A stretch of 36,947 nt of DNA from Fidelibacterota bacterium (GTDB lineage Bacteria; Fidelibacterota; Marinisomatia; Marinisomatales; UBA2128). Each line of letters starts with the position of its first letter. The first letter of the stretch is position 1. A program made the position numbers. The DNA is taken from the NCBI GenBank assembly GCA_046861645.1, contig JBHHUM010000018.1, positions 1 through 36,947 on the forward strand, written 5' to 3'. Shown piece after piece: positions 18,401 to 24,400 of the stretch.

Positions 18401-21400
18401 CCCACACAGGATGAGCTTGCCGATAATCCCCGCTCCAAGAGTGCAAAATTAAGAGCCGTAGAGAAACTATGAGACAATATCCGAGAAAAAGGCAGAGTAG
18501 AACCCGTCGAGGGCAGCAGGATTTCATTAACTCCCTTCTCTTTTTCCTGGTGGCGATCCTATCAATTTCAGGATTATTGACATATCTATGGATATATAAT
18601 GAAATCAATCTGACCATGAGAGAAATAATAGAGCTGGAGCAAATTCACGAGAATCTTCTCACAGAAAATAGGGAGTTAGAGAATACCAATGCCGCCTTGC
18701 GTCGATCGGACAGGATCTCAATGGTGGCCCGTGAAAAACTAGGTATGATCACTCCTTTACCGGAAACATTAGTCGTCTATGTCGATCCAGAAATCCTCGC
18801 CAAACTGGAAAGTTCACATGACTAAATCCTTTTTAAAATTTCGAAAGCGGGTATTGTTTCTTTCAAGCTTTGTCGTTTTGCTATGGGCTAGCCTGGCTAT
18901 GCGCTACTTTTATATTCAAGTCTTCAGAAGCAGCAATTTTACCCAGATTGTTAAAATGCAGGGTGAGGAGAAAATTCTCCTGCCCGCCATAAGAGGTACT
19001 ATTTATGATAGAAACTATAAACCCTTGGCAGAGAATGTTATCCATTACGACTTTGCAGTCCATCCCCGTCGTGTAGAGAATCGTGAACTAATCATTTCCA
19101 CTTTCTCCAGTGTTACTGGTCGTAGTGAAGACTATTACAAGGCACGTTTAGATTCAGACAATTCCTACGAATTTTTAGAACGCAATTTGCGTCATGATGA
19201 AAGCCAACTCCTTCTGGCATTGAAGGATAAAGGGCTCATAGCCCATAGACACAGTTCAAGACTTTATCCACATGGACATATCGCTTCCCAAATCATTGGT
19301 TTCACCAACGTCGATGGGAAAGGTCTGGAAGGGCTTGAACAACAATATGACTCACACCTAAAAGGACAGACTGGCTGGACAATCCTGGAAACAGATGGCT
19401 ATGGTCGCTCTCGAAAAAACCAAGCTTACCCTATTCAAAAGCCTGTTGACGGGAATAATCTCATTCTGACTATAGATGTGGAGTACCAGGCTATCCTTCA
19501 GGATGAGTTAATCCGTCAGATAAACGCTACCGGAGCAAAGGGAGGTATGGGAATTATTCTGGATCCTTTTTCTGGAATGATTCGAGCCATGGCTTCCCTA
19601 CCTGATTATGATCCTAACGAACCAGGCTCTTCCACACAGGAATTCTATCGAAATCGAGTTATCACTGACCAGTATGAACCGGGATCAACTTTTAAGATTG
19701 TTCCTGCCATGGCAGCACTTCACACCGGTAAAGTAAGTTTACAGGAAGAGTTCAATTGCGAAAATGGTAGCTATGAATTTCACGGTACTACTATTAAGGA
19801 TTGGTCAGACTTCAGCTTACTTACTTTTCCGCAAATCATTGAGCAGTCAAGTAATGTTGGAGTCATCAAGATTGCAGAGCGAGTAGGAGCTAAAGAATTG
19901 TATCGTTTTGCCCGGAAATTCGGATTTGGTTCTGAATCAGGAATAACCTTACCTGGTGAAGCCCGGGGTTATCTGCGTACCATACAAGAGTGGAGTGGTA
20001 TTTCTTTAGGGGAATTTCCACTGGGTCATGAAGTATCCGTAACCACACTGCAAATCGCCTTAGCTTATGCAGCGATTGCTAATGGCGGTTATCTTATGAA
20101 ACCAATTATTGTGGACAAGATTTGTGATACTGAGGGAAATGTTCTCCAGTTCGAAAGGCCACAGATTGTGAGGAGGGTATCTTCGTCTGCAAGTGTGGAA
20201 AATCTGAAATCAATGCTGGTAAAAGTCGTTGAAAGTGGTACGGGAACAAGTGCCCAATTGACAGGTTGGAAAGTTGCTGGCAAAACTGGCACAGCACAGA
20301 AGTTCATTGATGGTAAATACTCTAAATTCAAATTCATTTCGTCCTTTGCAGGTTTCTTTCCGGCAGATGATCCTCAACTCGTTGGCGTGTTCGTCCTTGA
20401 TGAACCCCGGAAAGGTCTGCACTGGGGAGGATTTTCTGCAGCACCCATTTTCCGAAATGTTATGAAGAGAATCATTACCCAAGATGATGAGATCCTAGTC
20501 CACAAACCAAGGTTGGAAAAATATTCTAACCCTCACCCAGAGACGAAATCGAACGATTTTCTGGCTGATGCACAAGGCGATCTACCCGTGACCATCATGA
20601 CTTCAGCAGTCACAAACTTGAGTCCACCTGGAGTAGTGGTGCCCAATCTGCGTGGGTTGAGTTTACGAAATGCAGTTGCAGAGTTAAAGATGTCAGGACT
20701 CAGACCTAAGGTAGAGGGTTCTGGAGCCGTAATAGGACAATGGCCACCACCTGGAACTGAAGTCCGGTATGGATCAACCTGTTCATTAAAACTTGACTGA
20801 TGGAAAAACTAACTTCAATTCTCAATGGTGTAGATCTGATTTCTGAAATTCCTTTGGATGTACCCATCCAGTCCATCTGTGCCGACTCTCGCCGGGTCTG
20901 GCCTGGTTCCCTTTTTGTTGCCATTCACGGCACACAGCAAGACGGCACAAAATTCATACCGGAAGCTCTTGCCAAAGGGGCAGCAGCGGTGATTTCCAAT
21001 GGCAAAGACACTGATAAGGAGGTTAAGTCTAACACTCCGCTAATTCGCGTACAAAATCCACGACTGGCTCTCTCCCAGATGGCCGCCAATTATTACGATA
21101 ATCCCTCGGCAGAAATGACTTTGGTCGGAGTCACAGGTACCAACGGAAAAACGACAACTTGCCACATTCTTTATGACATCCTGAAAGCATACGGATTAAA
21201 GACTGGTATCATGGGGACACTCGGAGCCAAGTCGCACGGCATGGAAGCTACTACGTCCCTCACCACCCCGGACAGCCTGGAACTTCATCGCATGTTACGT
21301 CTCTTTTGTGATGGGGGTGTCACCCATGTGATTATGGAAGTTTCCTCACACGCCTTAGAACTGGAACGCGTACATCACGTACAATTTGATTACGCCGTCT

Positions 21401-24400
21401 TCACCAATTTATCTCAGGATCATTTGGATTTCCACAAGACGATGAATAACTATTTCCAGGCAAAGACCAAACTCTTTTCCATGATCAATAGTGAGGGAAA
21501 GGCAATTATTAATTATGATGATGAGCGAGCAGAAAACCTTAGTGAGTTTTGCTCTTCACCGATTCTAAGTTGTTCTCTCGCTGGTAATACAGATGTTCAC
21601 TTTGTGGAATGGGGAATGTCTCGTAAAGGTATTACAGGCATTATTGCCTTAGGTAAAGACAGGATTACTGTAAGCTCCGCTCTCTTGGGTGTACACAACC
21701 TGGAGAACATTCTTTCCGCTGCAGCTACAGCGTGGAGCATGGGTATCCCTCGTGAAGCAATCGAAGCGGGCATCTCCCAATGCCAAAATATACCCGGGCG
21801 GATGGAACAATTCTCCACAAAAAACGGCGCTACTGTCATTGTGGATTATGCCCATACTCCTGACGCCTACGAAAAACTGTTTTCCTCATTAAAAACACTG
21901 CTACCTGCTGGAGGGAAACTCTGGGTGATATTCGGTTGTGGTGGGGATCGGGATCATGAAAAAAGACCTATGATGGCTGCTAAAGCAGAATCTTTCGCAG
22001 ATCATATTCTGGTAGTCCCTGATAACCCACGTACTGAGTCACTGGAGGAAATTAACCGGGAGATTGAAGCGGGCTTTACCCAGAATAAACATGAATTCAG
22101 AGGAAATCGTGGTAAAGCTATACGTGAAATTATCGGAAAACTCTCAGCAAGTGATATCCTTGCCGTAGTAGGCAAAGGTCAGGACAACTATGACATCATT
22201 GGAAGGAAACGTATCACCTATTCAGATATAGATACCGTCTTGAAAGCGATTAATGAGAATTGACTTACCCGATCCAGATACATTTAACCAAATGATCTCA
22301 AAACTGGCAAACCAAAATATTCTCTCCACTCTGACAGGTATTGCTCTGGATAGTAGAGAGGTACAAGCTGGTGATCTTTTCGTGGCCCTGTCAGGAGACA
22401 AGGTCGATGGTCACAATTTTCTACCGCAAGCACAAGATAATGGGGCTGCAGCAGCTCTCGTATCTTCTGAACGAGCTGATGTAGAATTACCTCAGATTGA
22501 GGTCGAAGATCCAGCGGAATTTATTGGAACATTAGCTACTGAATGGCGCTCAAATTTTACCTTACCAGTCATAGGAATCACCGGTAGTAACGGCAAGACT
22601 TCGACCAAGGATTTGCTCATACACATCTTCTCCACCTCCCGGGAAGTACATGGGACGCGTGGAAACTACAACACACACCTCGGACTACCTCTCACCTTAC
22701 TCGAGCTTGCCTCGCACCATACCCTCTCCATCCTCGAAATGGGAGCCAATAAAGCGGGCGACATTGAATACCTTTGCAATCTGTCTCTACCTCGGTACGG
22801 ATTAATTACCAATGTCGCCCGTTCCCACCTCAAAAGTTTTGGCACCATGAAAATTATTGCTCAGACAAAAGGAGAGCTTTTCACGGCACTCCCTGAAGAC
22901 GGCATTGCTTTTGTAAACATGTCAGATGAAAATGTAGCAAAACTGGATACGTCTGCAGAGAGAGTTACATTTGGTTTTGAATCAACTTGTGATTTTGTAG
23001 CTGATCTACTCCGACATAATGACCAATCCCTCAGTATTATTATTAATGGCGAAGAAATAGAGCTCAACTCTTTTGACGAATCGTTTGCAAAAAATACATT
23101 AGCGGCGGCCAGTATTTCTCTTACCCTGGGAATTTCTTGGGATTCGTTTCAGGATTCTATCTTGACTTATAAACCCACTAAGGGAAGATGTGTTGTGAAA
23201 ACTGTCCAGGGGATTACCATGATCGATGATAGTTACAATGCTAATCTCTCCTCTGCCATCGGTGCTGTAAATCTACTCTTTAGTCTGCCGGTCAAGGGAC
23301 GGAGGGTCATTGTGTTCGGAGATATGTTGGAATTGGGGGATATATCGGTAGCTGACCACGAAGAATTCGGTAAGTATTGCGTCACCAAAGGATGTAATCT
23401 TCTGCTCTGCTACGGAACTGAAAGTGAAATCACTGCTAATACAGCAAGAGGAAGAATCGATGCCCGCAATTACACTGACAAAAAAGAATTGTCTGCCGAT
23501 TTAAAAGCTTATCTAAAACCTGGTGATGCCGTTCTTTTTAAAGGATCCCGGGGTATGGCTCTGGAAACCATTATCAGCGAGGTCTTTGAAGCATAATGCT
23601 GTATCATTTGCTCTATCCCCTACACAGTAAAATTTCCGGGTTCAACCTTTTTCAATACATAACCTTCCGCTCTGCCATGGCTGCGATGACAGCTTTATTG
23701 ATCAGCTTCGTCATCGGACCAAGAATTATTCGACTCTTGCATAATAAACATATTGGAGAAGAAGTTAGAAGTTTGGGACCGGAGTCCCATTTCTCGAAGA
23801 AGGGCACGCCAACAATGGGGGGGATCATTATCCTCGCGGCGGTGATTCTCCCCACCGTCCTTTGGGCCAATTTGACTAATCCCTATATCCTGATGATCCT
23901 TACTGCCACCGTGTGGATGGGGTTTATCGGTTTTTTAGATGACTACCTGAAAAATGTGCGCAAAATCAAGAAAGGATTGATTGCACGATACAAGTTGGCT
24001 GGACAGATTATCTTAGGTATGGTCCTAACCTTTGTAATTCTATCCAGTAAGGAAATCCAGATCTATCAATGGTTTACACCTGTCGACGGTGACCCTTTAA
24101 AAAATCCTATTGAAGCAACGGTTACTACCCTACCCTTTATCAAGCAATCTGTAATCAATTTCCAACACTGGTTACCCTATGCACTTTTTGTAATATTCGT
24201 AGTAACAGCAACATCTAACTCTGTTAACCTGACTGATGGATTAGATGGCTTAGCTTCGGGACTTGTAGCTATTGCTGCTTTTGTGTTCGCCGGGATCGCT
24301 TACATCACAGGCCGGGCAGATTTCAGTAGATATCTAAACATCCTCTATCTGCCCGGCGCCGGGGAATTAACCATTTTCTGTGTGGCTTTAACTGGAGCCG

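Follow-up and report, generated by a model that had tools for sequence, protein, structure and literature searches.

The window, that is, the whole stretch of 36,947 nucleotides analysed here from contig JBHHUM010000018.1 of the Fidelibacterota genome GCA_046861645.1 (94.5% complete, in 184 contigs), contains a complete dcw cluster, identified by profile searches in the order mraZ-rsmH-ftsL-ftsI-murE-murF-mraY-murD-ftsW-murG-murC-murB-ftsQ-ftsA-ftsZ (Table 1). The full peptidoglycan operon announced in the preliminary description is therefore present, with the correction that murG is divided between two frames at a run of ten A residues, which, judging from the contig sequence, is probably an assembly slip.

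Table 1. Genes of the dcw cluster and MurE motifs in the window
Feature	Position	Strand	Basis
mraZ, rsmH, ftsL (start of the dcw cluster)	17064..18825	+	TIGR00242 and TIGR00006 above cut-off; FtsL weak
ftsI-type penicillin-binding protein	18779..20800	+	PBP3/SpoVD-family matches, E 1e-135, below equivalog cut-offs
murE, diamino-acid ligase with DAP-type pocket	20800..22263	+	NF001126 497.9 bits (cut-off 373); lysine-ligase model NF010628 298 < 536
GCGGDRD (MurE)	21934..21954	+	its Arg corresponds to E. coli R390 (numbered R389 in structure papers)
PDNPR (MurE)	22018..22032	+	DNPR at 22021-22032; Pro before it in 51/51 MurEs of the order, 0/30 others in the phylum
GKGQD (MurE), replacing the usual GKGHE	22171..22185	+	His lost, Glu to Asp
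murF, mraY, murD, ftsW	22253..27277	+	murF, mraY, murD above cut-off; ftsW 330 vs 337.5
murG, two frames	27267..28375	+	two TIGR01133 halves; break at A10 run 27750-27759
murC, murB	28375..30703	+	both above cut-off
ftsQ, ftsA, ftsZ	30697..34064	+	profile matches

MurE and the diaminopimelate pathway

The MurE of the window passes the diaminopimelate (DAP)-ligase model and fails the lysine-ligase model, and its occurrence throughout the order (Marinisomatales) is borne out by matches above cut-off in 98/101 genomes. The DNPR motif, on which DAP specificity had been proposed, is found in 51/51 aligned MurEs of the order, in 9/9 from the rest of the class (60/60 sampled class sequences in all) and in 21/21 from elsewhere in the phylum. 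MurE structures are reported to show the distal carboxyl of DAP held by the Asn and Arg of this motif (PMC3829189), and a DNPR enzyme has been described which accepts meso-DAP with a Km of 17 uM, uses LL-DAP at less than 1% and has no activity with Lys or Orn (PMC3681970). N415 and R417 are invariant in 81/81 aligned rows, and R390 is present in 80/81. The amino-group-binding Glu of GKGHE is kept in 47/51 rows of the order, the window being an exception, and the His of this motif in 0/51; His468 is retained in 2/60 rows of the class, 18/21 from the rest of the phylum and 11/11 outgroups. In a quick tree, the MurEs of the class form one branch (99% SH-aLRT); the loss of His468 parallels that of dapAB, and Pro413 parallels the loss of dapF, with one event each.

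As previously described, dapA, dapB and dapF are missing from this genome: no DHDPS-family protein (E<=1), DapB_N, DapF or Ddh is found, and asd, lysC, thrB, thrC and lysA (TIGR01048, 370 vs 297.9) are present. The gap in the DAP pathway reaches beyond the order, for which the absence of dapB had been claimed, to the whole class, with no full-length DapB in 163 class genomes (the control being positive in 12/14), no true DapA in 91 and no Ddh above cut-off in the five genomes searched for it. The absence of DapF noted in four genomes needs correction for the order, in which 3/70 genomes carry it, all belonging to one family. In other classes, DapF and lysA persist without dapAB.

Several candidates for the missing steps were discarded. 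DapB_N matches in the class cover the model partially and lie in ORFs of other lengths; that of one genome (G058), tested individually, resembles 2,4-diaminopentanoate dehydrogenase, the rest being judged from length and coverage alone. DHDPS-family matches in 13/70 genomes of the order (best E 5e-61) are considered paralogues, all three tested falling below the dapA cut-off. Lysine synthesis through alpha-aminoadipate was also rejected: homoaconitase was found, as was a homoisocitrate dehydrogenase-like gene, but the sole HMGL-family protein is an HMG-CoA lyase (LysW lay outside the search).

The statement that no report of such bacteria exists was too strong. The cultured phylum member Fidelibacter multiformis IA91 is reported to be unable to make DAP and to live on foreign muropeptides, as a muropeptide-dependent organism together with the class AB16, and the use of outside wall parts has been traced to the ancestor of the phylum (PMC11652737). 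Phylum (the relatives are labelled Ca. Neomarinimicrobiota/Marinimicrobia), inability to make DAP and wall-salvage genes are thus points of likeness. However, IA91 also lacks the synthesis of MurNAc, D-Ala and D-Glu and needs muropeptides, whereas the class studied here retains MurNAc synthesis, with murA in 69/69 genomes, murB, alr and ddl present and murI in most; moreover, salvage genes are not lineage-wide in the order. A class which makes MurNAc itself, yet has no diamino acid pathway, is what is new here relative to that work.

lysA and the salvage of foreign walls

The neighbours of lysA are GH18/T9SS genes, namZ, dacB and ldcA, and in one genome (G024) lysA lies directly before mpaA (239.8 > 157). 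This location within a peptidoglycan-eating cluster indicates that LysA is not a biosynthetic remnant, and, because lysA sits with hydrolases and, in G024, with mpaA, foreign DAP would reach the cytoplasm in the lineages bearing the cluster. A Gate-domain membrane pair, which we take to be SpmA/SpmB-like, also belongs to it.

The reported lysA is genuine in this genome, but order-wide it is above cut-off in only 40/70 genomes; families f17-f20 have none above cut-off. The S66 LD-carboxypeptidase is found in 37/71 genomes of the order, the Gate-domain protein in 33/70, and the salvage cluster in 0/14 genomes of f17-f20; being missing from about half of the order, it cannot be a general DAP supply. 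Among 52 genomes, both lysA and ldcA are kept in 26, only lysA in 5, only ldcA in 2 and neither in 19, kin not being independent. Since the recycling genes travel with lysA, which destroys DAP, they look catabolic. Of those attributed to this genome, MurQ (TIGR00274), NamZ (Pfam) and the S66 LD-carboxypeptidase pass their cut-offs, but AnmK falls slightly below (382 vs 387), and a NagZ-like protein is also below its own.

The LdcA-, NagZ-, AnmK- and MurQ-like genes of this genome, and mpaA beside lysA in G024, recall the murein recycling of E. coli. In contrast, neither Mpl nor AmpG is found above cut-off in five genomes each, the Gate-domain pair standing in the cluster instead, and no MpaA homologue is found in this genome. 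In marine Pseudomonadota, LysA has been described as the entry point for the catabolism of outside DAP (PMC9602339), whereas the lysA studied here stands without dapA and dapB and clusters with wall hydrolases. The same source gives LysA a Km of 0.72-1.90 mM and free DAP in Pacific water, in one study whose authors themselves caution on accuracy, a concentration of 0.61-0.96 uM; on these figures, MurE would be served before LysA.

A 0.97 Mb single-contig relative (G051) lacks dapABF, asd, lysC, lysA and the salvage genes, gives no match when searched with DapA and DapB sequences of its own phylum, and has few genes for amino-acid biosynthesis and several amino-acid carriers.

Origin and identity of the third residue

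It had been proposed that these bacteria either scavenge DAP or insert an analogue. This either/or stands, but the recycling genes cited for it do not provide the general supply, and lysine had been overlooked. Pal/OmpA was discarded as a constraint on wall type, the matches in this genome being MotB-like and G051 having none.

DAP auxotrophy with imported DAP is the reading that we prefer, tentatively and with somewhat less than even confidence; from gene presence and absence, motif conservation and gene order we infer the substrate of MurE, the uptake and a transporter. The class would make the sugars and D-amino acids of peptidoglycan itself and, having no DAP pathway, would import free meso-DAP directly from seawater, or after its release from the walls of other bacteria, for a MurE that would still be a meso-DAP ligase. 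Peptidoglycan-feeding lineages would keep the hydrolase cluster and lysA, LysA converting surplus DAP to lysine, and streamlined lineages would have lost both and depend solely on uptake. The conservation of DNPR and R390, the single MurE branch, the hydrolase neighbourhood of lysA, the Km of LysA set against free DAP in seawater, the scant biosynthesis and several carriers of G051, and the inability of the cultured phylum member to make DAP, with its use of outside wall parts (PMC11652737), argue for import. Against it stand the lack of any identified DAP transporter, the absence of the salvage cluster from about half of the order and from f17-f20, the joint retention or loss of lysA and ldcA, when a DAP-starved cell might lose lysA first, and the class-wide shift of the MurE pocket. 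In addition, a DapF-like epimerase is kept in 20/21 sister genomes, which imported meso-DAP would not need, and the one analysis of a wall from this phylum names lysine but no DAP. Members of the phylum occur widely in the ocean, and the only one cultured and described depends on wall fragments from other bacteria; should the class be a DAP auxotroph, the addition of DAP becomes a cultivation lead, and DAP a public good traded in seawater.

A less probable alternative is a predicted wall in which lanthionine or cystathionine made by the cell itself takes the third position, the thioether coming from a short cystathionine beta-synthase (CBS) without regulatory domain. An orthologue of this enzyme (64-87% identity) is found in 68/70 genomes of the order, including 13/13 of the streamlined family f12, and in 13/14 of f17-f20, with more distant CBS-type homologues in 7/7 of f21. 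The precedent is Fusobacterium nucleatum, which is reported to lack the DAP pathway and to require lanthionine synthase (PMC11602996). The class studied here is likewise Gram-negative and combines the missing pathway with a PLP-dependent cysteine beta-replacement enzyme, some relatives having an orphan DapF-like protein, but its enzyme is CBS-like and paired with a gamma-lyase, many genomes keep lysA, and its lanthionine is a prediction. Furthermore, a cystathionine gamma-lyase-family gene is equally widespread (68/70) and follows CBS in 7/30 loci; CBS is thus no orphan, and ordinary methionine-to-cysteine conversion would account for it. CBS is not adjacent to mur genes in 30 loci (1.5 kb flanks). 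Structurally it comes nearest to 4OFX, 6VJU and human CBS, with 5XEM, presumably the lanthionine-forming enzyme of Fusobacterium, absent among the top 60. In one genome without dapAB (G113), an operon with murB and murA starts with a CBS-family gene; this is a one-off and no general cassette, the link recurring in 0/7 other murA upstream regions and in 1/80 relatives near murA.

As for the stereochemistry of such a thioether, sister families would epimerise it by the DapF-like protein, and the order, 67/70 genomes of which have no epimerase, would use D-cysteine or accept the LL form. The DapF-like clade keeps both catalytic Cys, with A in place of N157 and K in place of R209 in 120/120, and its families have neither DapA nor DapB. 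However, N157 to A also occurs in the DapF of f22, which bears dapAB, and the DapF-like protein of Fusobacterium is reported to have turned out a histidine racemase. Mere replacement of MurI by these proteins is not general, since most f17 genomes have both; in f21 no MurI-like match was obtained. The two-step change of MurE, which parallels the losses of dapAB and dapF, would suit a doubtful, broader proposal, that the whole class of abundant marine bacteria replaced DAP with a thioether from a constitutive CBS and retuned MurE twice, foreign DAP, with LysA and the hydrolases, now being purely a matter of food. If so, a thioether wall would have arisen in nature a second time and independently, and the ocean would hold a sulfur-bearing wall polymer that has gone unrecognised.

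It is rather unlikely that MurE adds lysine, either L or, through the epsilon amino group, D, with the free carboxyl still on DNPR; the cell would have no DAP, and the site would be filled by lysine that is taken up or that LysA produces from scavenged DAP. The wall of IA91 is reported, qualitatively, to contain Ala, Glu and Lys, and the 21/21 MurEs sampled from other classes carry DNPR, but IA91 may reuse whole foreign muropeptides, bypassing MurE. A cyanobacterial MurE is reported to incorporate lysine by mistake where this amino acid is plentiful (PMC13130207) and that of T. maritima adds D-lysine (PMC3829189); no special supply would be required in G051. However, L-lysine would not require the invariant N415 and R417, the DNPR enzyme mentioned above is inactive with Lys, and no lysine racemase was identified, only one Alr being seen in each of G000 and G051. 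If lysine or lanthionine is used, wall type cannot safely be predicted from DNPR, and the walls of marine bacteria differ more in their chemistry than has been assumed.

That non-homologous enzymes make up a DAP pathway so far unrecognised is very improbable: lysA, asd and lysC in this genome, and DapF and lysA retained without dapAB in other classes, would be in keeping with it, but asd and lysC serve threonine, lysA has a catabolic neighbourhood, and G051 has neither an asd nor a lysC homologue. Explanations by gaps in the assemblies or by a wall pathway that does not function, to which the 94.5% completeness in 184 contigs and the frameshifted murG might point, hardly deserve credit and are already largely refuted, since the DapB control is positive, the identical absence is seen in the single-contig G051, G207 and G192 and across the 163 class genomes, and the mur genes are intact class-wide.

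Diaminopimelate synthesis and the window cluster

The division and cell-wall cluster of the window is complete from mraZ to ftsZ, in agreement with the full peptidoglycan operon of the preliminary description, and elsewhere in the same genome (184 contigs totalling 2.51 Mb, with a completeness of 94.5%) murA, murI, ddl and alr are encoded. An assembly slip and programmed slippage are both candidates for the splitting of murG into two frames.

The absence of dapA and dapB from this genome was borne out by queries taken from the lysC-dapA-dapB-dapD operons that exist in the phylum Fidelibacterota. 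Those for DapA and DapB had no match here or in G051, a genome of the streamlined family f12, and that for DapD gave just weak hexapeptide-type matches. Among 251 phylum genomes searched (control 12/14), full-length DapB is confined to other classes; as previously claimed for the order Marinisomatales, none was found in its 127 genomes, nor in 36 others of the class Marinisomatia, where only partial matches in other proteins appear. The one tested as DapB is an ornithine-pathway dehydrogenase. Across 151 genomes, of which 70 belong to the order, 21 to the remaining class and 60 to other classes, DHDPS matches at E < 1e-80 occur only in other classes, adjoining dapB. Those of the order, in 13/70 genomes, are weaker, and three tested as DapA all fell under the dapA cut-off. 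DapF had been recorded in 0 of 4 genomes and as present in the sister order; the latter holds (20/21 other class genomes, with 58/60 in other classes), and in the order 3/70 genomes carry it. No Ddh was found in five genomes. Taking into account these searches and the presence of murA in 69/69 class genomes, versus 15/42 outside the class, the class, as judged from its gene content, makes MurNAc and yet has no known route to DAP. This gap is real and class-wide, and three testable solutions to it can be put forward.

Features discussed in the text, with their locations (L, loci; C, contigs; G, genomes of relatives; f, families)
Feature	Location	Remarks
mraZ-to-ftsZ cluster	window 17064-34064	complete
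murE	window 20800-22263	NF001126 DAP-ligase model 497.9 bits, cut-off 373: passed
murG	window 27267-28375	two frames flanking A10 run at 27750-27759
PorU and two cargo proteins	window 1949-7078, 11654-15505	type IX secretion sortase; C-terminal sorting domains
Aconitase, mitochondrial type	window 9292-11553	TIGR01340 over cut-off
MotA/MotB-like pairs	own C31:19437-20972, C129:14044-15584	context non-flagellar-looking
Homoaconitase, homoisocitrate dehydrogenase-like gene	own C88 (L082:4588-8938)	homoaconitase of fungal type, TIGR00139 over cut-off
lysA-GH18/T9SS-namZ-dacB-ldcA-Gate-Gate with nagB	L543:4442-14128 (G026); also L544, L131, L542	conserved
CBS-family gene, murB, murA	L424:8002-11290 (G113)	one operon
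Second MurE	L431:6270-9034 (G144); G130:C50; G120:C3	family f27
DapF-like proteins	L144, L146, L148 (f11); L141-L143, L145, L147	Ser replaces both catalytic Cys motifs (EKSGNG, LASGSS)
Class IV aminotransferase	L311:7562-8446 (G051)
Lysine 6-transaminase region	L315:5789-13949 (G051)

The MurE pocket

The window MurE fails the lysine-ligase model (298, under the cut-off of 536), and its nearest relatives, at 75-76% identity, carry the labels Ca. Neomarinimicrobiota and Marinimicrobia. The DAP-specific DNPR motif attributed to it was confirmed in all 51 aligned order rows (50 picked from 98 over the cut-off, plus the window MurE), in 9/9 from class members outside the order and in 21/21 from other classes. 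In the solved MurEs treated in PMC3829189, the Asn and Arg of this motif bind the distal carboxyl of DAP, and its Asp, with Glu468, the amino group. R390 (residues are numbered by the E. coli protein, that is, the structure-paper number plus one) is kept in 80/81 rows. Two shifts go beyond the preliminary description. His468 of GKGHE, present in 11/11 outgroups and 18/21 MurEs of other classes, persists in 2/60 of the class, the window protein reading GKGQD, and a Pro directly precedes DNPR in 51/51 order rows and 0/30 others. The class forms a single branch (99% SH-aLRT) in a rapidly built tree with 66 rows, including 24 of the 51 from the order; thus, the His468 and Pro shifts are one event each and prove nothing on substrate. 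Three f27 genomes have a second MurE on a separate branch, which adjoins lysA in G144 and G130.

Possible sources of the diamino acid

Both options offered earlier, scavenging of DAP or insertion of an analogue, stand, and lysine is added as a third. The import of DAP to feed MurE is the reading we tentatively put first. It matches the invariant pocket, and the DNPR-bearing MurE of V. spinosum, as reported in PMC3681970, has a Km of 17 uM for meso-DAP, with LL-DAP at <1% and no use of Lys or Orn. Also on the side of import, PMC9602339 gives a Km of 0.72-1.90 mM for marine LysA and 0.61-0.96 uM for free DAP, with the authors' caution on the accuracy of the latter. Three points count against import: no DAP transporter was found, lysA is retained wherever salvage is, and the DapF-like protein of the sister families is left unexplained.

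LysA, over the cut-off in 40/70 order and 3/21 other class genomes, retains its substrate-binding motifs and looks catabolic from its gene neighbourhood. In a recurring cluster (G026, G039, G192), lysA accompanies a GH18 gene, whose product bears a type IX secretion tail, along with namZ, dacB, ldcA, a pair of genes for Gate-domain membrane proteins, and nagB; in G024, mpaA, coding for an amidase that frees DAP, directly follows lysA. The genome under study has homologues of all these genes except mpaA, dispersed over contigs, the nagB match being weak, lysA stopping close to one contig edge and the GH18 gene being truncated at another. The cluster is patchy, with the ldcA family in 37/71 order genomes. 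Among 52 genomes scored in both searches, leaving out 4 with sub-cut-off lysA matches, lysA and ldcA occur together in 26, lysA alone in 5, ldcA alone in 2, and neither in 19. The Gate pair, which we take to be SpmA/SpmB-like, may serve to import wall peptides; it is found in 92/151 phylum genomes, and a Gate protein in 33/70 of the order and 0/14 of families f17-f20. Neither Mpl nor AmpG exceeded the cut-off in five genomes each.

It is possible, if rather unlikely, that MurE adds a thioether analogue in place of DAP. Cystathionine beta-synthase (CBS; here 317 residues, no regulatory domain, TIGR01137 519 > 510) has orthologues of 64-87% identity in 68/70 order genomes, where contig ends truncate some of them, and in 13/14 of f17-f20. 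G113, without dapAB and the sole murA-bearing genome of its family, has a CBS-family gene upstream of murB-murA. The sister DapF-like clade keeps both Cys and shows N157A and R209K in 120/120 among the matches listed (of 1212). For DapF there is a chlamydial precedent. According to PMC11602996, F. nucleatum, in which the DAP pathway is missing, cannot do without lanthionine synthase, but the DapF-like protein of Fusobacterium is a histidine racemase. Moreover, a gamma-lyase family gene in 68/70 gives CBS an ordinary role, CBS lies away from mur genes in 30 loci, and the order is devoid of the epimerase, save for the few DapF carriers. The G113 linkage is repeated neither in 7 other murA regions nor in 79/80 relatives, and the structures closest to CBS are CBS enzymes. 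Four f27 genomes have the murB-murA pair without a CBS-family gene.

That MurE adds lysine is improbable. In its favour, the sole wall described in the phylum, that of Fidelibacter multiformis IA91, contains Ala, Glu and Lys, and lysine misincorporation is possible in a cyanobacterial MurE discussed in PMC13130207, but IA91 may recycle whole foreign muropeptides and the residues for the distal carboxyl are invariant in the class.

The streamlined genome and known auxotrophies

G051 is one contig of 969,550 bases, of which 800/965 called proteins were inventoried by eye (short ones left out), together with family searches. Its genes include murA-G, mraY, alr, ddl, ftsW, ftsI, rodA and mreB-like ones; no homologues of asd, lysC, lysA, namZ, nagZ, anmK, dacB, ldcA or the Gate pair were found. 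The MurI (glutamate racemase) family is missing from G051, as from its whole family f12 (13/13 genomes), and from 3/4 genomes of f8, despite the presence of murD. G051 encodes class IV aminotransferases, one of which may supply D-Glu. Among its carriers are one OPT, two AGCS, one SNF and one DAACS, and the amino acid used by its MurE must be imported free or be a product of general metabolism. In the vicinity of a lysine 6-transaminase, G051 has a GlmL-like gene and several conserved membrane proteins of unknown kind, which the genome under study shares at 35-58% identity.

As described in PMC11652737, IA91 makes no MurNAc, D-Ala, D-Glu, DAP or lysine of its own and lives on foreign muropeptides, a dependence said there to date from the ancestor of the phylum and to live on in anaerobic lines. 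The class differs in having murA and for this reason does not belong with such muropeptide auxotrophs; its gap is a variant within known wall-precursor auxotrophy or substitution. In literature searches with most subscription papers outside their scope, no paper on the diamino acid of the class or on the lysA-hydrolase cluster was found. The earlier statement that no report exists is too strong, the DAP inability of IA91 being published in PMC11652737; the primary IA91 paper (Nat Microbiol 2024) might, in its figures and supplements, already document the missing dap genes of the class.

No homocitrate synthase partner was found in the own genome for its homoaconitase and homoisocitrate dehydrogenase-like pair. 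The same genome carries two MotA/MotB-like pairs and, in the window, a mitochondrial-type aconitase and PorU with two cargo proteins.
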